Shown piece by piece: positions 723-20,955 of a stretch of DNA of 64,000 bases. A program made the translations under genes and the position numbers. Numbering within the stretch: the stretch's first letter is position 1; each line of letters begins with the position of its first letter. The DNA is taken from assembly GCA_001724265.1 (NCBI GenBank), contig MEDY01000081.1:1-64000 (forward strand), in the 5' to 3' direction. The stretch is from Rhizaria sp. SCN 62-66 (taxonomy: Eukaryota). Under the pieces are notes generated by a model. The model was not told the DNA's origin. It saw nothing but the letters and a program-made list of their open reading frames with translations, and searched no databases.

Positions 723-2228
723 ATGCTTTCCCGCACTGCCCGCGCCGCTACCCGCGTCTCCAAGGTCGCGTCGTCGGCCGCCGCCTCCTTCACCACCGCG
801 ACCCAGCGCAAGATCAAGGTCGAGAACCCCATCGTCGACCTCGACGGTGATGAGATGACCCGCGTGATCTGGTCCGACATCAAGAAGAAGCTCGTGCTTC
901 CCTACCTCGACCTCGACATCAAGTACTACGACCTCGGCCTGCCCAACCGTGACGCCACCAACGACCAAGTCACCATCGACGCCGCCGAGGCGATCAAGAA
1001 GTACAACGTCGGCATTAAGTGCGCGACCATCACGCCCGACGAGGAGCGCGTCAAGGAGTTCAAGCTCAAGAAGATGTGGCTCTCCCCCAACGGCACCATC
1101 CGCAACATCCTCGGCGGCACTGTGTTCCGCGAGCCCATCGTGATGAGTAACATCCCCCGCCTCGTGCCCGGCTGGACCCAGCCCATCGTCATCGGCCGCC
1201 ACGCCTTCGGCGACCAGTACAAGGCCATCGACTTCACCACCGACAAGCCCGGCACGTTCGAGATCAAGTTTACCCCCAAGGACGGCTCGGCCCCCACCAC
1301 GACCAAGGTCTTCGAGTACCCTGCCCAGGGCGGCTGCGGCATGGCCATGTACAACACCGTCGAGTCCATCACCGGCTTCGCGCACTCGTGCTTCCAGTAC
1401 GCCATCATGAAGAAGTGGCCCCTCTACCTCTCGACCAAGAACACCATCCTGAAGAAGTACGACGGCATGTTCAAGGACATCTTCGAGGCCATCTACCAGA
1501 AGGAGTACAAGGCCAAGTTCCAGGAGCTCGGCATCTGGTACGAGCACCGCCTCATCGACGACCAGGTCGCGCAGGCCCTCAAGGGCTCCGGTGGCATGGT
1601 CTGGGCCTGCAAGAACTACGACGGTGACGTCCAGTCCGACATCGTCGCTCAGGTACGAACTACTATCAAATATACCCACGCACAAAGAACTTGGAATGCC
1701 TTAAAAATATTACGACCATTGGCAGAACGACCGCAAACGTTACTTTATAATCGTAGTTTGATTGAATGCATATCATCTGAAGTAACCCGAACCTCACTCG
1801 ATTGATATCATTTTCCTTCTTTCTGTTTCGCAATTCAGGGCTACGGCTCCCTCGGCCTGATGACCTCCGTGCTGATGTGCCCCGACGGCAAGACGGTTGA
1901 GGCCGAGGCCGCCCACGGCACCGTGACCCGCCACTGGCGCGAGTACCAGAAGGGCAAGGCCACCTCGACCAACCCCATCGCGTCCATCTTCGCCTGGACC
2001 CGTGGCCTCGCGCACCGCGCCAAGCTCGACAACAACGCTGACCTGCTGGCCTACTCGCTGGCGCTGGAGCAGGTGTGCATCGACACCGTCCAGGGCGGCG
2101 CCATGACCAAGGACCTCGCGCTCGCCATCCACGGCAAGGACCTCAAGCCCGAGCACTACCAGGAGTCGTTCCAGTTCCTCGACACCATCAACAAGAACCT
2201 CGCCGAGAAGATGAACCGCAAGTTCTAA
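723..2228 (+). CDS. IDH2: NADP-dependent isocitrate dehydrogenase, mitochondrial precursor (exons 723-1652, 1839-2228; 439 aa; TAA stop)
   Basis: Motifs [107 protein letters not shown]. Arg/Ser/Ala-rich N-terminal presequence [15 protein letters not shown]. Splicing out 1653-1838 restores the conserved AQGYGS. Confidence 0.96.
1653..1838 (+). other. Spliceosomal intron (186 nt, phase 0) in IDH
   Basis: CAG|GTACGA ... TTCAG|GGC; AT-rich; removal rejoins a conserved motif. Confidence 0.95.
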
Positions 2229-2703
2229 GTAAGCGAACGAAAACTTACGTTGGAGTCTTGGGTTGAAGATGGGTTGGGGTTGTTGAGAGTGTTCTTTTCA
2301 AAGAGATGTTAACGATACGTTTGCGGACTCGGTTGCCTCTTTTTGTAACTTTATTATATTACTATGCTTCTTCGTTTATGTTTTAAGCGGGAAATACAGC
2401 TTTCTGATGCGATCTACACTCGTCTCTATTGTACGCTTTCAACGAACAGCAATGCAAGATGCAACAACCACACCAGGATTGTCCCCAGTGAATCTTTTGT
2501 GCTGCTTTGTTCAACAACGCACATCACATGTTGCAGTCGTCAGGTCAATCGTTAATGTTGATATATGTTTTTTCGGATACATTTGTATCTGAATTTGAAA
2601 TTATACATCTATAAGTTTTATTCTTGTTGTTCTATCATCATTCTTGTCCAAGTGGTTCAACCTGGTTTTCGCGTCTCTCTTGATCTTCCTTCACACCCAG
2701 CCC

Positions 2704-3298
2704 ATGTCTGACACCGAGGCAGAGTCAAATCGTTTGCTCACTAGAAGTGAGCGTACCTCCGCGGTCGCTTCCTCCGCTCACAATACGCCTGCTGGAACTG
2801 CTTCCGCGCGTTCCAACCAGCCCCAGGCTCACCCCTCGCGCTCGCTCGGCCCCAACCGCGTCGCTACTGACGAGGAAATCGTCGCTGTACGTTCATCAAA
2901 CAATGTCGAAACACGATTCAACTGTGTCATCTAATGTACATCACTGCCTTGTACCGTCATATTATCGTTAGACTTTTAAGTAAGTCGTCCTTCTCTCAGA
3001 TAATGTGCACTTGTTTGTTGTCATCCGCTCACGTTTTGCTTTCCAGGCGGCCGGCGGCAAGAAGGCGGTCGAGGCCTACCGCAAGAAGCTCATCGCCCAC
3101 CAGGACAAGGTCATGGCTGAGAACGCGCGCCGTGCGGCCGAGTACGCGAAGCTGCCCGCCGCGTCGAAGCGTTACGGCTCCTCCGAGGCCCCCAAGAAAG
3201 CCGACAATCATGACGATGACGAGGAGGAAGAGGAGGACGTCCTCTTCTCGGCCAGCGGCGGCGGCCGCGCCAGCAACACGTCGCGAGTCCGCCTCTGA
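2704..3298 (+). CDS. Hypothetical protein, 144 aa (exons 2704-2886, 3047-3298; TGA stop)
   Basis: Two GC-rich coding-like blocks separated by an AT-rich GTACGT...TTCCAG intron (2887-3046). The spliced product ...DEEIVA|AAGGKKAVEAYRKKLIAHQDKVMAENARRAAEY... is in frame, with an acidic patch near the C-terminus. No family recognised. Confidence 0.7.
2887..3046 (+). other. Spliceosomal intron (160 nt, phase 0)
   Basis: GCT|GTACGT ... TTCCAG|GCG; AT-rich. Confidence 0.75.
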
Positions 3299-4362: not shown

Positions 4363-4410
4363 CAAGTTCGGTGGTCGAGTTCGAAGGTCGAGTTCGATGG
4401 TCAAGTTCGC
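4363..4410. repeat. 13-bp tandem repeat (~3.7 copies, C[A/G]AGTTCG[A/G][A/T]GGT) just 3' of the FBPase stop codon
   Basis: caagttcggtggt / cgagttcgaaggt / cgagttcgatggt / caagttcgc, read directly. Confidence 0.8.
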
Positions 4411-4414
4411 TTGC

Positions 4415-6482: not shown

Positions 6483-7886
6483 TTAGACGAGGCCGCTGCC
6501 GCGCGCGAGCGAGACGGTGTAGGACTTGTCGAAGGCGGCCAGGAACGCGGCGCGAGCCTCGGGGGTCGACTTCTGGTTCGTGTTGGAGGTCTCGAGGAGC
6601 GAGAACTCCATCTTGGGGAACTTGCCCTCGCGAACGAGCTCCTCCTTGGCCGACTCGAAGGCCTGGTTGACCTCCTGGCTGATGATGCGCTCCAGCTCCT
6701 CCTCGAGAAGCTGGGCGGCCTCCTCCTTCATCGTCGACTTGAGAGCCATCAGGGACGCGATCTCCTTCTGCGCGCGCACGGCAGAGTTGATCTGAGCGTA
6801 GACCATCGCCTCGGCCTCAGCCATGGCGGCCGCCTGCGCCTGGGCCTCGACCTGGGCGCCCGCGGAGACCTCGAGCAGCGAGCTAGGGGCGTCGGCGTCG
6901 ACCTCAGCGAACACCTCGACCTCGGAGTCAGCCTCGGCATCCGCCTCAGCCTCAGCCTCGGACTCAGCCTCGGACTCGGCGTCGACCTCAGCCTCGGCCT
7001 CGGCCTCAGCATCAGCCTCGGCGTCAGCCTCAGCCTCCGCCTCCATCTCAGCCTCGGCCTCGGCGTCGAGCTCAGCGAGCGCGTTGACCTCAGCGGCGAC
7101 GGCGGCAGCGAGCTCAACGGCGCCCTCAGCCTCGACCTCGGACTCGGAGTCGGCGGAGATCTCGATCAGCGACTCGCCGCGCATCTCGGCGATGCGCTTG
7201 TTGGCCTGCTTCTTGGTCCAGGCGTTGTTGTAGTTGTCGAATTTGTCGGCCCACTGCGCGCTCTTGGCGTAGCGGTTCGCAGCAGCCTGCGCGCGGCGCG
7301 TGCCGATGGGGTCCGCGTCGACGTGGCCCGAGCGCGCGTTCTGCATCGCCGCAGTAGCCCAGTCGGACTCGACCTCGGCCTCAGCCTCAGCCTCGGCGGC
7401 GGCCTTAGAAGTGATCGTGGTGGTGGCCTCAGTCTCGACCAGGGCCGTGTGGAGCGGGCCCTCAGAGAGCAGCGAGCGGAGCTGGGCCTCCATGTCGACC
7501 TCCTCGGTGGCGTCCGCGGTGGTCTCGATGAACGACGTCGTCGAGGGGGCCTGGACGCTGGCGACCGTCGAGGTGGGGTTGGGGGCCGCCGACGCGGGGC
7601 CGGAGCCCCACTGGACGGGGCCACCATAGTAGTAGTACGGCGACCACTGGCGGAAGGGGTGACGCTGGGGACCGACGTAGCTGACCGACGGGAGAGGGTA
7701 GAACGGGTTGAAGTTCTGGTACGGCGGCAGGAACTGCGAGTAGTAGGGCGTCGGGAAGGCAGCAGGCATGATGTAGGAAGGACTACCCGCCTCAGCCTGA
7801 GCCTCGGCCTGCACCTCCGTTGCCACAGCGGCGGAGCAGGCCAGAGACGCGACAAAGAGGCCAAGTGCAAACTTCACGGCCTTCAT
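6483..7886 (-). CDS. Predicted secreted Ala/Glu-rich protein, 467 aa, with signal peptide and recurring S-[F/L]-[L/I/V]-E motifs; TAA stop
   Basis: N-terminal MKAVKFALGLFVASLACSA signal peptide, strong C/G-ending codon bias, Pro/Tyr-rich segment, (AE)n tracts and a helical C-terminal region. Confidence 0.88.
   Translation of the reverse strand: MKAVKFALGLFVASLACSAAVATEVQAEAQAEAGSPSYIMPAAFPTPYYSQFLPPYQNFNPFYPLPSVSYVGPQRHPFRQWSPYYYYGGPVQWGSGPASAAPNPTSTVASVQAPSTTSFIETTADATEEVDMEAQLRSLLSEGPLHTALVETEATTTITSKAAAEAEAEAEVESDWATAAMQNARSGHVDADPIGTRRAQAAANRYAKSAQWADKFDNYNNAWTKKQANKRIAEMRGESLIEISADSESEVEAEGAVELAAAVAAEVNALAELDAEAEAEMEAEAEADAEADAEAEAEAEVDAESEAESEAEAEADAEADSEVEVFAEVDADAPSSLLEVSAGAQVEAQAQAAAMAEAEAMVYAQINSAVRAQKEIASLMALKSTMKEEAAQLLEEELERIISQEVNQAFESAKEELVREGKFPKMEFSLLETSNTNQKSTPEARAAFLAAFDKSYTVSLARGSGLV
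6895..7080 (-). repeat. Degenerate hexamer repeat (GCC/GCT-GAG)n encoding an AEAEAEADAE tract
   Basis: Runs of gcctcg/gcctca on the + strand. Confidence 0.85.
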
Positions 7887-8818
7887 CGCTCACCTTTTAA
7901 CGCAAAGAGAGTCACAAAAAGGGCGAGGGGACAGAAAACAGACAGAAAATAAGGGGCGTGAGCAAGTGGGGTGGGGATGGCTTGAGGGTGGAAAGGAGGA
8001 GTTGGACGGGGGTCTGCATGGCCTTCAAAAGGCGATACGAGTGCAAACCACGACACAAGGACGCTCTGTGAGATACTTCTGGTAGTGATAAAAACTCTCA
8101 GACATCCCCAGGCGCACACACGAAAGCAGGCCCGAGAACGAGTCGGGGGCAAGAGGAGAGTAAGAGGTCTCTGTGAAGCAACACGACGAGGTTATCTTCA
8201 GGGCGGTCCATGTAGGCAAAAGCGTCCCCATGTAGCGCCATGAATACAACAAGGAAATAATTACGACATGCAATAAAATCATATTTCACCTACAACCCGA
8301 GAGGGTGCTAAATGGGGTCCCTGCAGACCGATTTCGACGTCTCTCAGACCTTCCTTTAGGGGAACTCGGTCTGAAGGCGGCGACTTAACTTCCGTGTTTT
8401 TCGGTCCTCGCTGGTCCAAAGCAAAAGCAACTTGAGATTTGGACAATCAGCGACAGCTTTATGAAATAATGTCATGAGCTCTGAAAAGAAAAAGTTGACA
8501 ATGAGAGGCGAGCATATTCATTGATTCTGAAAAACGTTCATAAATTTGTATGGGTATTTACCTAATGTGTCAAAACAACTCTTGTCCAATCTGGCTGACA
8601 CAACCAAACGTGGCTTTGGATCGTACATATGCCACTCGTTTGTCTTATATATAACACACTGATCGCTGATACAACACTCTCTCGCGGCGGCTACTACCGA
8701 CGCATGTGAGCTCTATCTATTGACACTAAACATCAACAACTACACAGTAACAAAACAGTTCATGCTTCTGACATGAACACTCTCCTCGCGACACTCTAAA
8801 ACTTTGCCCAGCGTTTCT

Positions 8819-10427: not shown

Positions 10428-13400
10428 TCACTCCTCGTCGTCGTCGCCAGCGATCACGCGGCGCGAAGGCGCTGCGGCAGCAGGGACGACGCGGGCGTCA
10501 ACCTCGTCGTCGTCGTCGTCGTCGTCGTCGTCAGCGAGCGCGACGCGGCGGCGCTTCACGGTCTGGTTCACCACCTCCTCGTCGTCGTCGTTTGCAACGC
10601 CGGTGGAGTTGCTGCTGGCGGGGTGGGCGCCGCGGTTGCGGGCGCGGAGCAGCGCGGTGAGTCCATCCTCCTCCTCGTCGTAGTCGTCACGCGCGTCGGC
10701 GGCCTCCTTCTTGTCGCCGCCCTCAGTCTTAACCGCCGCCTCGGCGTCGGCGTCGGAGTCGGAGTCGGAGTCGGAGTCGGAGTCGGCGGCCTTGGCGGCG
10801 ACAGCAGCGGCGTCGTCGGCGTTGGCAGCGGCGGCGGCGGCAGCGGCGGCGAGGAGAGATTTGTCCTTCTTCTCCTTCTTCTCCTTCTTTTCCTTCTTCT
10901 CCTTTTTCTCCTTCTTCTCCTTCTTGTCTTTCTTGTCCTTCTTCTCCTTCTTGACGCCAGCCTCAGACTTGACTCTAACCGAGCCGGCAGCAGCAGCCGC
11001 GGCGACAGCGGCCGCAGCCGCCTTGGCCTTGGCCGCAGCCGCCGCAGCGGCCGCCTTGGCCTTGGCCTCGGCACGGAGACGCTCCTTCTCGGCCTTGGCC
11101 TCGGCCTTGGCCTTGGCGCGGGCCTCGGCCTTGGCCGCCAGACGCGCCGCGCGCTCCTCCTCGGTCTCGCCCTCGACCACGTCGTTGGCGTCGTCCTCGG
11201 CCGCGACGTTGTCGTCGCCGTCGTCGTCGTAGTCGTCGTCGTCGTCGTCGTCATCCGCGGCGCCGCGACGAGCCCTCTTGCCCGCCTCGCGTTTGCTCTT
11301 GACCATGTCGGCCTCGGCCTCGGCCTCCTGCAGCCGCGCCATTGCAGCCTCGCGCGCCACGGCGGCCGCAGCCAGCAACACGCGCGCCTGCTCCTGCTCG
11401 GTCTCGGTCGCCGCGCGCGAGGCCTCGGCCTCGGCGGCAGCCACGGCGGCGCGCGCGGCGGCGGCCTCGGCCTCGGCGGCCGCCATCTGCTGCTGCTGCG
11501 CATGCTCCTGCGCGATGGCAGCGCGCGACTTAGTCAGGATCGACGTCATGTGAGGAATCTTGAGGTCCAGGTACTCGAGGTGCTTCGACGAGCGCAGCGC
11601 GAGGTTCTTGAGCGAGATGTTGCTGCTGCTGGAGCCCGCGCTCGGTACGGCGGCAGGGACTGAGGTAGAGGCAGAGGCAGATGCGCTAGAGCTGTTGACG
11701 CTGGCCGCGGCCTCGGGCTAGGCGGCCTTGATGAGCTGCGCGAACATGCTGCGCGCGAGCGTGGCGTCTGCGAGCGCGGCCTCGACGCTGGCGACGTCAA
11801 CCATACCCACGGTCACCGCGGCCGAGGTAACACCCGCCTGTGCGGCCACCGAGGCCTCCTCGAGCGTGATGGCCATGTTGTACCACAGCGAATGCTTGCC
11901 GGGCGTCAGCTCCAGCGCGCGGGCCAGAGCGCGCCGCGCGTCGCTGGCGCGGGACGCGAGGTGGTAGGTGCGAGCTAGGTAGAGCTGCGCGTTGGCGACG
12001 GCCTCGATGCCCGCGCCCGTGGCCTCCAGGGTCGCGATGGCGGCCGAGTAGAGCAGGATCGCGTCGGCGTACTGGCCCTCCTGGGTGAGCACGTGTGCAA
12101 GGTTCACGGCCACGTTGGCGTCGCCTGGTACGGCAGCGCGCGCGTCGGCAAGCGCCGCGCGCACCAGCGGCAGCACGGCGCGCGTCTTGCCGGTGCCGGC
12201 GGGCAGCCCCGCGGCGGCCTCGTCAACCTGCGCCAGCTCGGCCATCGCGGCCGTCAGCCCCAGCAGCGCGGGCAGGCAGCCCGGGTCCAGCGTCAGCGCG
12301 CGGTTGAACTTAGACACGGCGTCGCCCAGGTCCGACTTGGCAGTCGCCAGGTGCGTCGCCACAGCCTTGTCCAGCTCGGGCTTGGACGAGCTCGACGGAC
12401 GCAGCTGCCGCAGCTCCACCAGCCGCGCCGCCTTGACGCGCTCGTTCGAGCCGCGCGCGGCCAGCAGACGGCCCTTGGCGGTGATCGCGTAGGCGTCCTT
12501 GAGCGCAGCGCCGCTCGCGCCGGCGCCGGGGGCAGCGCTGTCTGCGTCGGTCATGGCGGAGCTAGTGCCGGAGTGCGTGGCCTGCTCGCGGTACGCAACT
12601 TCGTAGAGACGCTCGGCGCGCGAGAGCAGCGCGGCGTTGCGGTGCTTGTTGTCAAAGCTGAGCTCGCCCAGGATCGAGAGCACTTGCGCGCGCGCCTCCT
12701 GCCCCGTAACGGGGCGCACGGCCGCGAAGGCCTCGACCACGCCCGCGCCCACGGCGGCTGCGGCAACGGCGGGGTCCGCGGTCGCCGCCACGCCCGCACC
12801 GGCGGCGGATGCGGCCTCGCCGTCAGTCATGGGCTTAGCGTTAGCGTTGGTGTTGGCGGTGTTTGTGAGGGAGGAAGGCGGGAGGTTGACGAGAGCGCGA
12901 AGCTGGTTAAGCCCCCACTCGAGGCCGAGCAGCGAGTGGCGCGTGGCCAGCTCGGCCAGCTTCACCACGGCGTCTGTGTAGCCGCTGTGGCTGCGGACCA
13001 GCGCAGCCAGCACCAGCTCCGCCTCGGTCGTCTTGCCCGCCTGCTCCAGCAGCAGCGCCACGTTGTAGGCAGTGGTGACGGCCGCGGCGGGCAGCGGCAG
13101 CGGCAGCGAGATGCCCGCGACCGTGAGCGACGACGACGGCAGCGACGAGATCAAAGTTGAGCCGCTGTCGGCGCCGGTCGCGGCGGGATCGGACAGCGCG
13201 GCCGCCATCTCGGCCTCGGTGGGGCCGGCGGTCGCCGCGGTGACCGTGGGCGCGGCGCTGCTAGAGGCGGGCGAAGCGGCCGTGGGGCTGAGCTCGCGGC
13301 GCAGCTGCTGCAGCGAGTAGCTGTAGGCGGCAGCGGCGGCGTCGGGAGCAGAGCCCAGCTCGTGCAGCGCCGCGCCGAGGTTGTGCCACAGCGCGCGGGG

Positions 13401-15806
13401 GGCCGCGGCCACGGCGGCCTCGGTCACGACGGCAGCCGCAGCCGCAGTCGCATCGGCGGCGGAGTCGGCGTTGTTGGGGTTGGAGGTGAGCGTGGCGACG
13501 GACACGCCGGTGAGTAGCGACACGGCGCGGGCGATACTCGCGAGCGCGGCGGCGGGGGCCGCGGCGCCGCCCGTCACGGCGGCCGTGGCGCAGGCCTGCG
13601 CGTGCTCGGCCAGCACCAGCGCCTCGGCCTTGTCCAGCGCACGGACGGCGGACGTCCCCTCAGACTTGTTGCCGTTGTTGTCCGAGGCGGCGGCGAGGGG
13701 CGCGAGCGCGCCGCTGGCGAGGGCCGAGGCCGCGGTAGCGAGCAGCGGGCGCGCGCGTGCGGGGTCGGCGCCAACGGTGAGCAGCGCGTGGCCCAGCGCC
13801 AGCGCCACCGAAGGCTCACCGGCCGGGGCCGCGGCGGCCGCGCGGGTCAGTGCGGCCACAGCGGCGCGGCCGGTCGTAGTCGCGGTAGACGGGGACGAGA
13901 GCGCGGAGCGCAGGAGCAGCTTGCCAAGGCCCAGGAGCGCGCCTGGGTGGGCCGGGGCCAGGCGCAGGGCGGCGGAGTAGAGGCTCAGCGCCTGTGGGGA
14001 GTTGAGCGGCAAGAAATAGTGGGATATGAGTCGTTGGGTAATAAAATAATGTTTACATTTAACTTTGAGAAAAGATACGAGACAGAATGTCAACATGGCA
14101 AACAAGAAAACATATAGGCGTACCTGAGACGCGAGGACCTCGCCCGTGGCGGCCACGTTGACCCCTGCGGCGCTGCTGCTGCCGAACACGCTGTCCACGT
14201 CACCCATCGCGGCGCCCGCTGCGCCGGCCCCGGCCTCGGCCTCGGCGGCAGTGGCGAGGACCGCGGCGGCGGCGACGGAGGGCTGGTCGGGCAGCGCGAG
14301 CCCAGCGAGCGAGTGCGCGACGCGGGCGCGCTGGTATGCGATCTCGGCCCGCAGCGCCTCGACGCCGATGGCGCTGAAGCCGCCCAGCGCGCCACTGGCC
14401 GTGGCCTCGGCGCGCGCGAGCAGCGCCTCGATGCCGGCCGCGGCCGAGGTGGGCAACGTCACGGTCACCGCGCCCTCGCTGCTCACGGCCACCTGCGGGC
14501 TGCCGGCCTGGAGGCGCGCGCGCGTGCGTGCGGCGAAGAAGGCGTGGTTGGCCAGCGCCGCGAGCGCAAGCGGGTGATTCGGCGCAAGCGACTGTGCGTA
14601 GGCCAGGAGTGATAGCGCCTTGGCGGGGTCGCCCGTCGCCGCGGCGTCAGCGCCAGCGCTGCCGGCGGCGGCGGTGGCGGGCGGCGGGTGGAGGAAGAGC
14701 TGGAGCTCGAGCAGGCCGAGCGCGGCGGCGGCGTCGGCGCACTTGGGGTCAAGCTGCAGCGCGCGCATAAAGGCGCGGCGCGCGGCAGTGTAGGCCTTAA
14801 GCGCGTAGTGACAGAGCCCGATCGACACGCGCACGGCGGCCGGGAGAGCCGGGTTGGCAATAAGCGCGGCGGAGTAGGCGGCCAGCGCGCTGCGGGGATC
14901 GCCGCGGAGCGCCTTGACGAGCCCCATGAGGAGCAGCGCCAGCGCGTCGCCAGGCGGCGCCGTGGCGCTGCCCGCCGAGGCCAGCGCGACCGCCGCCGTG
15001 CTCGTTGGCGCGCCGCCCGCGGGCCCCGCGGGGGCGGAGGCGGAGCCGAGCGCGAGCGCGAGGGCGGACTCGGCCGTGGCGGCGGCCGAGGCGGCTGTGG
15101 GCTCGGCGGCGAGCGCGAAGTAGGCGCGCATCGACCAGACTGAGGGGCAGTTGACATGGGTCGCCTGCATCGTCGTCGTCGCGGTCGTCAGCGCCTGTGG
15201 GCAGACAAAGAAGTAGAAAAAACACGATTGATAGAGTTAAATGTGAGACAAATTGGCATTGAAACAGCAAGGGTGCATGAAACGAGGACGTCGTGTGTAT
15301 GAGCGTACCTGCGTGGCGGAAGATGCGGCGACGGTGCGGTCGCGCACTGGCAGAGCGAGCGCCTGCGCCATGGCGGCGCCGGCCTGCGCTGTGAGCAGCT
15401 TGACCTGGGCCAGACTGTCGGCCGCGGTCTGCACCGGCACCGTCTGTGCGTGCTGCACAAGCTGCTGGAACGCCGCGCCGTGCCCGCGCTTGTGGTACTC
15501 GAGCGCCAGCGCGTGGCAGAGCGACGCCGACACGCCCTGTGACAGCAACGCGTGCAGGTCCGACAGCGGCGGCAACGCGTCGGCGGGGCTCAGAGTCAGC
15601 GGGAGAGCGACGGTCGAGAGGGGCTCGGTCGCGGGCGCCGAGCCGGGGGCCAGCGAGTACAGCAGGGGGTTCTGCAGCGGCAGCAGGAGGTCGTAGGACG
15701 CGGGGAGCGCTGAGGCGGCGTCGAGCGCGGCCACGGAGTCGACAGGCGCGTTGGTGTTCATGGTGGGGTCAGCCGAGGCGGAGGCCGCGGCGGTCGAGGA
15801 AGACAT
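10428..15806 (-). CDS. CTR9: PAF1 complex TPR subunit CTR9, ~1710 aa (exons 15806-15309, 15194-14124, 13991-10428), with one in-frame TAG at 11720-11718; TGA stop
   Basis: N-terminus LCHALALEYHKRGHGAAFQQLV resembles CTR9 [64 protein letters not shown] and LWYNMAITL are TPR motifs. After the TAG the same frame continues into a helical region and a charged K/D/E tail as expected for CTR9. Comparisons are from memory, not an alignment. Confidence 0.88.
10754..10950 (-). repeat. Low-complexity coding repeats: (GACTCC)n = DSDSDS and a KKE/KKD repeat
   Basis: Tandem ggagtc units at ~10754-10785 and ttctcc/ttcttc units at 10861-10950 on the + strand. Confidence 0.85.
13992..14123 (-). other. Spliceosomal intron (132 nt, phase 0, stop-free 3n) in CTR9
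   Basis: CAG|GTACGC ... CCACAG|GCG; an AT-rich island that the ORF track translates as atypical sequence (VRLYVFLFAMLTFC...). Confidence 0.88.
15195..15308 (-). other. Spliceosomal intron (114 nt, phase 0) in CTR9
   Basis: CAG|GTACGC ... CCCACAG|GCG; AT-rich, contains an in-frame TAA. Confidence 0.88.
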
Positions 15807-16640
15807 GGGGAGGCAGCGGCAGCAGAAGTGCGCTAGGTCTCGATTGTTCTGTCTGTCGAACGAGGGAGCGTGTCAGGTTTTGCTTGCTCCAAACTTCCTG
15901 TCAGGGAACGGAGTCGCAAGAAAACGCAAACACAACGCGCTGCTGCGGGTGGCGGCGGCGGCGCGGGGGTCTAGAAACAAACAGAAAACAGGCGCAAACA
16001 GCCCAGTAGCATCGAAACAACAAGGGTTAAAATAAGTTTTGGTCAGGGTGCGTTGGCAATGTGATACGGTGTTGGTTTATAACGATTCGAGAGTAGATGA
16101 GTGTAGAAAGACCCAAGCGCGGAGCGGGCCGAGGAAGTGAGGCGGGGTACAAGAAATCAAGGCCGGGATAGGCATAGACTTCCGTTGATAGCAACAGGAT
16201 CAGCGTGTAGTGAAGATCATTCAGTGCTTGAGATGCTTGCTATTAAATCACTTCGCCAGATGCCAGGATACGGTGCCAATCCCGTTTGATTGATGATCCG
16301 AGAGCCACAACGATTAAAATTTGAAAAATGAATTTGGCCCAGTTTTTTCGGTCCGTCATCTGGCCAAGCGCCCCCTTCCAGCATGAAATGCCAGGTCCGC
16401 AGTGCAATATTCTGATCGTCAGTAAGATCAAAATTGCTAATAAACGATTTATCTTGTGGTGTCTCATACTATATCTTACTTATAAATCTTGTATCTGCTA
16501 TCTCTCTTCACAGGCACAGCTTTCGTTTGTCTTAGTTGTCACTGCAGCTAACACCTCCTGCAGCGTTCGTTTGAACCACTCCAGCTCGGTCACGCTTGCG
16601 CGCGCTGCTTCTACCGAAGCACCAAGACTTACGCGGCTAC

Positions 16641-19600
16641 ATGGACCGTTATATGGTGCTGGCCAAGGTTGGTGAAGGCACGTTCGGCGAGGTCTTCAAG
16701 GCCCGCTGTCGCGACACAGGCGCCTATGTACGTTACTCACATATTCGTTCATTAACCTCGACAAATCCATATAGATAACAACGGTATCGCAATCAACGTC
16801 GGCGTGGCATATCACATCTTGTATTCTAACTGTACTTTTTTCCGTGCTCGGTCCTGCAACTATTGTGTATCTCCACAGGTGGCCCTAAAGAAGGTTCGCG
16901 TGCGCAACCTCGCCGCGGGTCTCCCTAAGTCTGTCATCCGCGAAATCCGCGCCCTCTCAGCGCTGCGCTCGCCGCACCTCATCCGCCTGCTGCGTTACTT
17001 TGCATTTGGCGCGGGTGTTGTGCTGGTGCTCGAGTACATGGCCAGTGACGCGCTCAAGCTCGCCAAGACGCTCTCGCAGCGCACGGGCGCCCGGCTGCCG
17101 CTCGCTGCAGTGAGGTCGCTCACGCGAGACACCGTCGAGGGGCTGTGGGCGCTGCACGGCAAGGGCGTGATGCACCGCGATGTGAAGCCCGGCAATGTGC
17201 TGGTGGACAGCGACGGCCGCGCCGTGCTGGGCGACCTCGGCATGGCACGCGTCTACCAGCAGGGACAGGTACGGAGATTCGCCAAATTCGAGCGGATATC
17301 ATCAAAACGTGCACATATATTACAATATATGGGGATACTCTTTTTTAATGTTGCATTGTGAGTTTGCATCAATGAATTGGACTAATCCCCGACAATCAAT
17401 CTCATTACCGTCTACTTTTCTACAGATCTACTCGCACGAAGTCGCGTCGCGGTGGTACAAGGCTCCCGAGCTCCTGCTGGGCACGCGCCAGTCGACCCCT
17501 GCCATCGACATGTGGGCTCTGGGCTGCGTTGTCGCAGAGTGGCTCTCCGGCGGCGCGCTCATGGCAGGCGGCAACGACATCGACCAACTGGCGCGCATTT
17601 TCTCCACTGTGGGCACGCCTCTCGAGACTGAGACGGAGCCAGAAAACGCTGACGCAAACGCAACAGACGGTAACAACAATAACAGCAAGGCAGATACAAC
17701 TAACGTTACAGAAAATAGTTTTAGCGTTGGGTTTGTGACTGAAACTGGTTTCCCGTTCGCGCCCGTGCCGTGTCGCCGCACGTGGCCCTCGGTGGTGACT
17801 CTGCTCGACTACACTAAGATTACATTCCCTCCATCCGCGGGCCGCGACTGGACAGAGACGTTGCCCACCGCTGACCCGGCGGCCGTGGACTTCGTGGCGC
17901 GGCTGCTGGTGTTGGACCCTGTTAAGCGCATGACTGCGGAGCAAGCGCGACAGCACCCGTTTGTCACCGGCAACCTGAACACGCGGACCGGCGACAACGC
18001 GGACACCGGCACGGTTGGTGCGCTTTGGAGTTGTCTTGACGTTAGGAACAGCGGCGCTGACGGCAAGGAGCTCGTGGCGTCGCTAGTCAAGTTTTCTCTC
18101 GCGGCCAACGAGGCCGCAGCGGCCACGACGGTCGCGGTTGCGGTCGCGCACGGACACACCCAGGGGTACGGCGCCCGCAACGGCGGCGACGGCGCTAGCG
18201 ACGATGACGAAGACGAGGACGACGAGGGTTACAGCAACTTGATGTACGCGAACGATCCCACCGCGAGTAACAGCAACGTTAACACTGGCCGCAGTCTCAA
18301 CTCCACGCTGCACACGCCCACAACAAACGCCACAGCAAACGCGTCGGCCTCAGCGATGACGACGACGCTGACCAGAACTGGTCTTATCAATGGTAGCGGA
18401 GGCGCGCCGCTGTTCACGCCGCCACGGCCGAGGCAGCAGTCTGTCAAGCAAGCACTCGGCAATGACGATAGCAAAGACGGCACTGGCAAGTGCTGCTGTC
18501 GGGGTGGCGTGAGCTGCCGTGGTCGCAAGAGCAATGCAAGTGTTTGTGATAGCTTTGGCTCATATCGGACCATGTCAGATGTGACTGTGAACACAACGAC
18601 GAGCAAGGGCGGCGTCGACGAGAAGACGGTATTCACCGTTGCTTTGAACAGCGACCCGCAGTCATGCGGCACGAATGATAACAAGAATGAAGGTTTTGCA
18701 ATGCAGATTGATACTCGCGGACATGTGTCATTCACTCTGCCCTCGGTCACACCGACAGTGCTCGCAGCCCAAACGAATCAAGGACAGGGATCGAGCAAGC
18801 ACAAGACCAAGAAGAAGATGTGGCAGGGGAAATGTAAAAACGCACAGAAGGGCAGCGCTAAGAGTAATTTCTCACGCTCGGAATGCTGCTGCCTCCAAAC
18901 CTAGCCACAGCCTGAGCGGCTGCGACTGCCTTCGTGGCTGTCGACCCAGTCGATGCAGGAAGAAGTCGCCTTCTGGACCGCGGTTGACGCTGCCACCAGC
19001 GACACGAATCGCGTTCCCAGCATCAACATCAACGGAGCGCCTACCGTGAGCAGCCTGCCCGTGGGCCATCTTATCAGCGCTGCCACGGCCGCCACCCCGT
19101 ACAGTCACGAGATCATGGGCGCGGCACTGCTCGCCGCTACACTCGAGACCAGTGAGACCACCCCTGGAACCGCGATCTCTGCGGCGAGTGTGGGTAATAA
19201 TGCTGCCGTTGGCGACTGCGGTGTTGATGTTGACGCCGTTGTTCTCGCAATGATTCTTGGTATCAACGTAAACACGACTCCGGCACCCGCTCCTGTAGAC
19301 ACAAGTACTGGAGGCAGTGAAGCTGTGAGTGCTGCATTAAAGGTGACTGTGGGGGTATGTGTTTGCAACAACGCCATTTTCCGACCGCCCGGCTCGGTCA
19401 CGTTTCCACACGACGCCCTTCCCAACAGCACCAGCGCCAACACAGCCGGTAATGCCAACGCAGTCGCAGGCGGTGCTACGGCGAGCAATGAGGGCGAAAA
19501 CGCAAAGAGCAACGCTGTGGACAGTGGTTTTGATAACACTGTTGTTCTCGCCGCCGCCGTCACGGCCCCGGACGCCAACACCAACAGCTATGCCTTTGCC

Positions 19601-19843
19601 CACGGTAAAAGCAACAACATTCACAATAATAGCGGCGGCATCGGTGGCAACGTCATCATCAGCGACGCCGTAACTGCTGCGGCCGCCACGGGCGCGCTGA
19701 CCGAAGAGGATGACGGCGACGGCGGCAACGGCTCCAAGATGGCATGGGCCATGCTCGCCGAGGTCAGGCGCTTCCACCAGCTCCTCCAAAAGCTCGACTT
19801 GGCACAGGCGCAAACGCAGACGCAAATGCAAAACTAGTCATGA
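16641..19843 (+). CDS. CDK20: CDK20/CCRK (LF2)-like kinase with long C-terminal extension (exons 16641-16727, 16879-17268, 17426-19843; ~964 aa if TAG 18902 and TAG 19835 are sense; TGA 19841-19843)
   Basis: MDRY.VLAKVGEGTFGEVFKA, VALKKV, GLPKSVIREIRAL, FGAGVVLVLEYMASD, HRDVKPGNVL, DLGMAR, YSHEVASRWYKAPELLLG, DMWALGCV, GNDIDQLARIF..VGTP fit the CDK20 subfamily. The kinase domain is secure; the 3' end depends on how TAG is read. Confidence 0.82.
16728..16878 (+). other. Spliceosomal intron (151 nt, phase 0) in CDK20
   Basis: TAT|GTACGT ... TTCTAAC (branch-like) ... CCACAG|GTG; joins TGAY|VALKK. Confidence 0.93.
17269..17425 (+). other. Spliceosomal intron (157 nt, phase 0) in CDK20
   Basis: CAG|GTACGG ... 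ACTAAT ... CTACAG|ATC; joins ARVYQQGQ|IYSHEV in the activation loop. Confidence 0.93.
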
Positions 19844-20655
19844 AGATGCGGATTTGACACTATATAGTCTAAGAATAGATAGATTAATAGCAACAATGGT
19901 AATACTAAGCAAATTAATTCTTTGTTGTGGAACTTTGATTAAAAAATAAACTTTTGTATTGATTTGGGAAAAAAGAAATTGTTGAGTTTGTCGATGATGA
20001 TAAGCACAAATGCGTCTTGCGATCAGTGGCTACAGACAGCAGACTTGACTTGCACTGCATTGCTTGCTACGTGTTGGGCTTTGGTGAGCGTGCATATGAA
20101 AGTCAGAGGCTGACAATAGGTGCACGTGGAGAGAGAGGTAAGGAGGAAGTGACAAAACGTGTCTCCTTCACAAAAAGACTCTTCTCGTGACATTAACAAG
20201 GCGACATTGGGGAAAAATAAAAACGCAAGCGGCCAAACAGGCAAGCAAGTGATTGTAGACAGCAAAATGCAAGAGTAGGAGCAAAAGCACAGCAACAGTG
20301 AAGCGTGTTAAAAGGAAGTGTGGCACGTGTCCAGACAGCAACTGTGCTTTTGGGTGCAAGCAAGCGTAGATGCAAGAGGGTGTTAAGTGTAAATAGTTGT
20401 GATAAAACACGCCTTTCCAAACCCAAACGAAGACGTCACAGCAGCTCCAGCACAAAACCTCAATCAATCTCTGCAAACGAGTGCAAATGACTGAAAAGGG
20501 CTGCAGGAGCCAGAGCTGCGAGTCGCTTCGTGGGACAGGTTAACGCGCCTGCTGCGGCTCGCACGTGCCAAAACTCAGTTTAGCCGGTGCGCCTTTGTGG
20601 GCGTTCCCCGTGCGTCCGTAATTGTGGAAGGTCGTGCATTGGGACGGCGGTTCGC

Positions 20656-20955
20656 TTACTTGTACGCGAGGCGCTCGTTGGTCTCGGACTCAATCTTCTT
20701 CATGAGGTCGGCGAGGCCGTACGAAGTGTAGGGGTCGTAGTCCTGGAGGTGCTTGGGGACCTCCTCATGCTTGAACGAAAGGTCGTGTGCGCGAATAAGG
20801 CGGCGCACGCGGTCCTTCTGGACGTCGGGGGGAAGCATGTTGACGGCCTTGGCGACGGTGTCGTTGCTGATGATGATGTCCTCAGCAAAGAGGCCGAAGG
20901 CACGGAGCTTGTTGACGGTCATACGCTTCTCAACGTTGGCAAGGGCGCGCAGCAT
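20656..20955 (-). CDS. QCR7: Ubiquinol-cytochrome c reductase subunit 7 (14 kDa subunit), ~99 aa; TAA stop
   Basis: LRAFGLFAEDII...VAKAVNMLPPDVQKDRVRRLIRAHDLSFKHEEVPK...YDPY.SY...LMKKIESETNER fits the QCR7/UQCRB pattern (GL..DD, A..RLP, R..R..RA.DLS.K...LP). The start is at ATG 20955 or at the in-frame ATG 20970. Confidence 0.88.
   Translation of the reverse strand: MLRALANVEKRMTVNKLRAFGLFAEDIIISNDTVAKAVNMLPPDVQKDRVRRLIRAHDLSFKHEEVPKHLQDYDPYTSYGLADLMKKIESETNERLAYK

Follow-up and report, generated by a model that had tools for sequence, protein, structure and literature searches.

In-frame TAG codons in a CTR9 gene and a CDK-family kinase gene of a GC-rich metagenomic eukaryote, and their possible translation

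In a stretch of 64,000 nucleotides of contig MEDY01000081.1 (Rhizaria sp. SCN 62-66; this whole stretch is called the window below), two genes, one encoding CTR9 of the Paf1 complex and the other a CDK-family kinase, each contain an in-frame TAG that is followed by hundreds of intact codons. We consider it about an even bet (a probability of roughly 0.5) that these two TAGs are translated, because UAG either lost its stop meaning recently and is still little used as sense, or is leaky as a stop; the window does not separate these two forms. Translation of the TAGs, the residue inserted and the scope of the effect, genome-wide or limited to these sites, are what we infer from the observations described here. 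All statements on the genetic code are based on this one 64-kb window and on protein-level look-ups.

Internal TAG codons in the CTR9 and kinase genes

An earlier note on this DNA had placed three TAGs in frame, at 11720-11718 on the minus strand (CTR9) and at 18902-18904 and 19835-19837 on the plus strand (kinase), and we verified these coordinates and frames. As the note had also stated, the first two TAGs are followed by long runs of codons with no AT-rich spacer. We counted 429 codons after the CTR9 TAG and 310 after the kinase TAG, and the coding signal was unbroken over both. This signal was followed with a codon-usage model trained on the giant open reading frame (ORF) of the window and applied in windows of 150 nt. 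Across the CTR9 TAG, the best frame was the same in each of these windows, with margins like those of the flanking exon and a drop only at about 10,500. Across TAG 18902 it was also unchanged, and the signal fell only at about 19,830. The GC content was 0.61-0.70 around both internal TAGs, while the gene boundaries of the window are all AT-rich and several hundred AT-rich bases lie between other genes. Apart from the TAG, translation of the CTR9 exons was stop-free.

The identity of the CTR9 gene was established with phmmer against solved structures, in which three blocks were colinear with human CTR9 chains (E 1e-15). The last of these blocks aligned query residues 1026-1130 with residues 665-764 of human CTR9 and ended 43 residues before the TAG. 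In the protein, a TPR solenoid that is colinear with CTR9 precedes a C-terminal part that is helical and charged. To follow the sequence across the TAG, 670 residues of CTR9 read through it (the TAG being query residue 241) were searched with HMMER against 1.84 billion representatives. This yielded 37 matches at E <= 0.001, one of them the window's own ORF. The best stretches of four matches (P0008, P0009, P0011 and P0023) began before residue 241 and reached residues 411-530. For the alignment we picked 6 of the 36 non-self matches, as longer proteins covering the TAG site, and in all six the protein goes on beyond the TAG column. Directly before the TAG, A222, A229 and F233 are invariant columns of this alignment, the TAG itself lying 8 residues after F233. 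Downstream of the TAG, the alignment has a shared block, then a charged region and a K-rich run, and finally an RRR...DDDD end shared with P0008, P0034 and P0011. Those relatives that carry names are scattered over Phaeothamnion, Nonionella and Amoeboaphelidium, and one cluster has members named CTR9 by JGI/IMG. As read from this alignment, the sequence after the TAG is the genuine C-terminal third of CTR9. An intact conserved tail of this kind would not be expected of a long-dead sequence, and CTR9 has, as a readthrough site should, a functional in-frame ORF downstream of the stop.

Other searches were less informative. With 218 residues spanning the CTR9 TAG, phmmer found no CTR9 match among solved structures, the link having come from the search of representatives. 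A word-indexed protein search across the TAG gave no match, its 8000 scored candidates being swamped by low-complexity words. A guessed post-TAG ORF starting from the ATG at 11549 was absent from the protein collection, and a metagenome scan with the pre-TAG piece of CTR9 found one distant locus only (L001, 30% identity). Two side observations concern the relatives themselves. The closest one (P0008, 1565 residues, 32% identity) is encoded by a single uninterrupted ORF on a 216-kb ENA contig and, like the CTR9 of the window, has the K-rich run and ends in RRR..DD. In Amoeboaphelidium protococcarum, the CTR9 relative consists of two adjacent models (P0058 and P0059, 875 and 181 residues) in one assembly and of a single 983-residue model in others.

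The kinase belongs to the Pkinase family. Its best solved match was CDK2 (E 5e-18), with CDK1 and CDK4 also among the best solved matches, and on the strength of these matches it is best called a CDK-family kinase, the narrower name CDK20 being that of the earlier note. Some 390 codons separate the end of the kinase domain from TAG 18902, and for the tail after this TAG the evidence is the codon-usage signal. Protein searches found no homologue of the tail beyond the same organism. A longer uninterrupted form (614-2000 residues) was not found either, which is weak evidence with the search tool used, and an exact 35-base pattern beside the kinase TAG had no match in either viral_contigs or genome_contigs. 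The Q-x-Q-x-Q register in which the earlier note had seen the TAGs is visible in the translation, but carries no statistical weight. At the 3' end of the gene, the third TAG is followed by T, with a TGA-A one codon further. The coding signal collapses here, and the GC content falls to 0.27 after the gene. TAG 19835 may be a real stop, or it may be a sense codon with the TGA as the stop.

We also looked for recurrence of the TAGs, judged by the ORFs (translation table 11) recorded on contigs of MGnify, JGI/IMG, Logan and ENA. The ORF stopping at the kinase TAG (P0004, 510 residues) was found on 6 contigs from these four sources. The ORF resuming after this TAG was found on 4 contigs as P0005 and on 2 contigs as a variant (P0003) with 1 of 294 residues changed. 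The ORF stopping at the CTR9 TAG (P0006, 1150 residues) was present on 4 contigs, and a variant of the same length with 2 of 1150 residues changed (P0007) on one contig of 25 kb. These contigs possibly come in part from the same samples. Judged by these records, at least two haplotypes have stops at both internal positions. An assembly error appears very unlikely, since 5-6 contigs and two haplotypes share these ORF ends. At the nucleotide level, the window sequence is present in runs labelled bioreactor metagenome or wastewater metagenome, one of which is possibly its source, and three further runs (three studies, 2016-2025) contain 65-93% of the words sampled from it.

Finally, we compared the internal TAGs with the stops of the window. 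We re-read all seven clear gene ends and found them to be as previously stated, TAA in five cases and TGA in two, with no TAG. A purine follows the stop in 7/7 of these terminators, whereas a C follows both internal TAGs. A C after the stop codon makes a weak termination context. The baseline for this comparison, which involves two sites, is that C opens 25% of the codons of the giant ORF. Both internal TAGs are also found in the heptamer CCTAGCC (11716-11722, minus strand; 18900-18906, plus strand), for which the prior chance was about 1% (CC stands at the end of 14% of codons and at the start of 6%). This heptamer was not enriched in the window, with 5 copies found versus 7 expected. Both of these points on stop context, the purine versus C and the CC-TAG-CC likeness, come from two sites and are suggestive only.

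Readings of the internal TAGs

If the TAGs are translated, this uncultured, mitochondriate eukaryote would suppress UAG at codon 1281 of CTR9 and at codon 652 of the kinase, and both proteins would be made in full, at about 1710 and 964 residues. Gln would be the simplest choice for the inserted residue, through a tRNA-Gln reading UAG, because TAG is one C-to-T transition away from the abundant CAG, its commonest transition neighbour. TAG would then be a very rare sense codon, UAG having lost its stop meaning recently and its usage being still far from equilibrium. In the other form of this reading, UAG would be leaky in a weak context (CC-TAG-CC), real termination being carried out by TAA and TGA. 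A tRNA scan found 0 tRNA genes in the window, there were 0 Rfam matches, and eRF1 is not among the genes of the window. What favours translation of the TAGs is that, failing it, a recent, fixed truncation would have to be assumed in each of two genes out of about nine neighbours. The proposal of the earlier note, UAG reassignment or efficient readthrough, therefore stands as the single most likely reading, in view of the continuous coding, the conserved CTR9 tail, the recurrence, the lack of a canonical intron and the lack of any TAG-ended gene among the clear ones. The part of it that implies a genome-wide code change gained no support, with 0 TAG in 14,898 codons. Nor did the proposed identity of the residue (probably Gln), no TAG being found at a conserved column.

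A more specific version, which we regard as rather unlikely, is that of a stop-codon reassignment near its beginning in a GC-rich organism that is not a ciliate, with a dual-meaning UAG that has almost no sense usage yet. UAG would already be decoded efficiently, probably as Gln, and fresh CAG-to-TAG changes would survive in tolerant linkers of essential genes. Old TAG terminators such as the one at 19835 would be backed by a nearby TGA, or UAG would still act as a stop in a 3'-end context.

Several observations weigh against translation of the TAGs. The first is their scarcity elsewhere. The giant ORF contains, in frame, 0 TAG, 0 TAA and 0 TGA, as against 284 CAG and 43 CAA (327 Gln codons). 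Together with FBPase, the secreted protein and ARL1, this makes 0 TAG in 14,898 codons, including 367 Gln codons, compared with 2-3 TAGs over the 1,989 codons of the two affected exons. At the rate of these exons, 15-22 TAGs would be expected in the other codons (Fisher p = 0.014 if 2 TAGs are counted and 0.0016 if 3 are). The density of internal TAGs is thus about 0.1 per 1000 codons (2 in about 16,900 counted). Stop-free translation with no in-frame TAG was also observed for IDH, QCR7, the kinase domain and exons 1-2 of CTR9. The second concerns the sites. None of the three TAGs (0/3) occupies a conserved column, as the earlier note had itself cautioned. The CTR9 TAG falls in a variable linker, with a gap in 5/6 relatives and Leu in 1/6, and the alignment is therefore silent on the inserted residue. 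In the 64-kb window, we did not find what a UAG-to-sense code should display, namely TAGs in many genes and at conserved columns with one dominant residue. The third concerns the stops. TAG 19835 coincides exactly with the point where the coding signal stops, which is where an ordinary stop would lie. The lack of TAG among seven stops has a probability of 0.08-0.48 if the usual share of TAG is 0.1-0.3. The CC-TAG-CC likeness concerns two sites only and was spotted after the fact. Lastly, 70% of the possible one-base nonsense changes lead to TAG in this codon usage, rich in G and C at third codon positions (GC3-rich), so that a TAG-only pattern does not discriminate.

A rival reading keeps the standard code, both TAGs being recent, fixed and tolerated nonsense mutations that cost CTR9 429 residues and the kinase a tail of 312. 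We find this possible, though on balance doubtful, and give the same standing to its corollary, that the downstream frames are intact merely because too little time has elapsed. Both TAGs come after recognisable domains, 43 residues past the last TPR block of CTR9 and some 390 codons past the kinase domain, and random nonsense changes would mostly be TAG, as just mentioned. The other 14,898 codons are TAG-free, and TAG 19835, taken as a normal stop, would bring the terminators to an unremarkable 5 TAA, 2 TGA and 1 TAG. In protein sequence the haplotypes differ by only about 0.15%, so that TAGs shared between them need no great age. Against this, the part of CTR9 that would have been lost is conserved in 6/6 aligned relatives, and the 429 and 310 downstream codons have neither a frameshift nor a further stop and retain the full codon-usage signal. 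Recent fixed losses would be needed in each of two among about nine neighbouring genes, the alleles persist over several assemblies and studies, and no longer uninterrupted form turned up, in what was a weak search.

A less probable explanation is that the TAGs are removed or changed in RNA, by an unconventional GC-rich in-frame intron or by editing of the U-to-C type. The CCTAG|CC found at both TAGs could serve as a YAG acceptor, and a CCACAG follows the kinase TAG. An exhaustive listing of the in-frame GT..AG spans over each internal TAG gave 4 for the kinase and 13 for CTR9, of 147-678 nt and with a GC content of 0.52-0.72. The four clear introns of the two genes look different. They have an AG|GTACG donor and an ACAG| acceptor, are in phase 0, measure 114-157 nt and have a GC content of 0.37-0.43, versus 0.55-0.75 in exons. 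No span over a TAG pairs a GTACG donor with an AT-rich body, and the sole GTACG donor among them sits inside a block aligned to human CTR9. The 147-nt span in CTR9 would remove the invariant columns A222, A229 and F233, and the candidate spans in the kinase have in-frame coding signal. A canonical intron over either TAG is ruled out by the form of the splice sites, by GC content and by the conserved columns that would be lost. As an aside, the second intron of CTR9 is open in frame, and bacterial-style gene callers read through it, as is the case in P0006.

It is very improbable that UAG is a regular Gln codon of a settled, genome-wide code of the Iotanema type. The points that support translation of the TAGs apply to such a code too, and the stop set would be TAA and TGA only. 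With a settled synonymous Gln codon, TAG should be far commoner than it is, and the 14,898 other codons, 367 of them for Gln, contain no TAG. The known UAG codes are far denser (204 UAG in 126 genes for Iotanema and 384 in 71 genes for exLh; PMC5304391). Least probable of all is an artefact, in the form of an assembly or sequencing error or of post-TAG frames that are separate abutting genes, as might be suspected since the window is a metagenome contig: the same ORF ends come back in two haplotypes and on 5-6 contigs drawn from four sources, the frame after the CTR9 TAG is part of CTR9 in 6/6 aligned relatives, and there is zero spacer at the TAGs versus several hundred AT-rich bases between other genes.

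Comparison with known systems

Nuclear code changes limited to UAG are known from few lineages, namely Iotanema, exLh and some phyllopharyngean ciliates, all of which were described when UAG was already in wide use. In Iotanema spirale, UAG encodes Gln while UAA and UGA are stops. There, 204 in-frame UAGs were reported in 126 genes, and 22 of 28 hyperconserved positions with UAG corresponded to Gln (Panek et al. 2017, PMC5304391). The likeness is that TAG is the only stop codon found in frame, that TAA and TGA terminate and that Gln is the natural candidate. The difference is that our window has 2 internal TAGs in about 16,900 codons and none at a conserved column. Furthermore, the organism studied here encodes the complex III subunit QCR7 and has GC-rich genes. 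In the rhizarian exLh, in which UAG encodes Leu, 384 in-frame UAGs were reported in 71 genes, with Leu at 82 of 86 hyperconserved positions. Its terminators were 56 UAA and 15 UGA, with no UAG, and UAG usage differed strongly between gene classes (PMC5304391). To judge by this description, exLh resembles our case in that UAG is split from UAA in an organism that is not a ciliate, and differs from it by a far denser use of UAG. The Leu found at the CTR9 column in one relative carries no weight in this respect.

Independent UAG-only reassignments, with UAA kept as a stop, have been found in phyllopharyngean ciliates by mining metagenome data (McGowan et al. 2024, PMC11687900). These ciliates are reported to have widespread sense UAG, and their suppressor tRNAs were identified (PMC11687900). 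In our case, the contig is at least 131 kb long and GC-rich, it has a 42-kb gene, and there is no tRNA in the window. Codes in which stop codons are ambiguous have been described for Condylostoma magnum, for Parduczia and karyorelicts and, in the case of UAA, for Blastocrithidia (PMC4967479, 10.1101/2022.04.12.488043, PMC12153298). A TAG that is sense inside genes (11720, 18902) and a stop at the 3' end (19835) would fit such a code. These organisms have, by the same accounts, frequent in-frame stops, with all or several of the stop codons ambiguous, whereas in-frame stops are rare here and are TAG only. Programmed readthrough by a near-cognate tRNA, for instance tRNA-Gln on UAG, has also been reported (PMC13192750, 10.1101/2023.06.19.543857). 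The C after the stop and the functional, conserved extension downstream are in keeping with it. Known cases usually have short extensions and low efficiency, while here the part that depends on the TAG is conserved and makes up a third of an essential elongation factor, so that efficient decoding would be needed. A literature search, with supplements outside its reach, found no paper on this organism or on a UAG change in a GC-rich wastewater eukaryote.

If the TAGs are indeed translated, this case would be an addition to the small set of UAG-only changes. It would stand out by its extremely low sense usage and by its occurrence in a GC-rich, mitochondriate organism that is not a ciliate. A lineage in which UAG is decoded and yet almost unused would show how the capture of a stop codon starts (ambiguous intermediate versus codon disappearance) and which genes and contexts are the first to tolerate decoding of UAG. 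If the TAGs represent tolerated truncations, the case is an ordinary one, and a warning that nonsense mutations in GC3-rich genomes mimic the signal of a TAG-only code, because 70% of them produce TAG.

Gene content of the window

The window belongs to a GC-rich metagenome contig of a eukaryote, in which spacers and introns are AT-rich. Its genes are, in order, IDH (Iso_dh), a hypothetical ORF, FBPase, a secreted Ala/Glu-rich protein, ARL1 (Arf), CTR9, the CDK-family kinase, QCR7 (UCR_14kD) and the giant HECT ORF (Table 1). The names are backed by matches to the families Iso_dh, Arf, FBPase, UCR_14kD, TPR and Pkinase. A family search gave no support for the hypothetical ORF, and the secreted Ala/Glu-rich protein had no Pfam match.

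Table 1. Coordinates of the genes, introns, internal TAGs and terminators in the window
Feature	Position	Strand	Details
IDH stop	2226-2228	+	TAA, followed by G
Hypothetical ORF stop	3296-3298	+	TGA, followed by G
FBPase stop	4417-4415	-	TAA, followed by G
Secreted Ala/Glu-rich protein	6483-7889	-	468 residues; signal-peptide-like start; long (A/E/D/S)-alternating repeats
Secreted Ala/Glu-rich protein stop	6485-6483	-	TAA, followed by G
ARL1 stop	8821-8819	-	TAA, followed by A
CTR9 (Paf1 complex)	15806-10428	-	Exons 15806-15309, 15194-14124 and 13991-10428
CTR9 introns	15308-15195; 14123-13992	-	114 nt; 132 nt (open in frame); splice sites AG|GTACG...ACAG|
In-frame TAG of CTR9	11720-11718	-	Codon 1281 of 1710; context GCC GCC TAG CCC GAG
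CTR9 part after the TAG	11717-10431	-	429 codons; conserved C-terminal helical and charged region
CTR9 stop	10430-10428	-	TGA, followed by a purine
CDK-family kinase	16641-19843	+	Exons 16641-16727, 16879-17268 and 17426-19843; long low-complexity tail
Kinase introns	16728-16878; 17269-17425	+	
In-frame TAG of kinase	18902-18904	+	Codon 652 of 964; context CAA ACC TAG CCA CAG; 310 in-frame codons after
Kinase 3' end	19835-19843	+	...AAC TAG TCA TGA; TAG is codon 963; TGA 19841-19843, followed by A
QCR7 stop	20658-20656	-	TAA, followed by G
Giant ORF	22371-63998	+	Runs past the window end; intronless; 13,876 codons from the first ATG; very Ala/Ser-rich

The giant ORF had been overlooked in the earlier note. 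The plus-strand frame from 22032 to 63998 is open and TAG-free over 13,989 codons from the preceding stop. No Pfam family was found in its first 10,000 residues, and a HECT domain starts in the last 130 residues or so (profile positions 3-133 of 306), where it is cut by the window end. The product would be a HECT ubiquitin ligase of about 14,000 residues.

A last observation concerns an octamer, AAGCGAAC, which occurs in 4 copies in the window, no more than expected by chance overall. Three of these copies (2231-2238, plus strand; 4405-4412 and 20650-20657, minus strand) are in sense orientation and come 0-3 bases after, or overlap, the TAA of IDH, FBPase and QCR7. The gene for the secreted protein has TAAGCGCAC. 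In this organism, the AAGCGAAC type of octamer probably serves as a signal of the 3' end or of the termination context.

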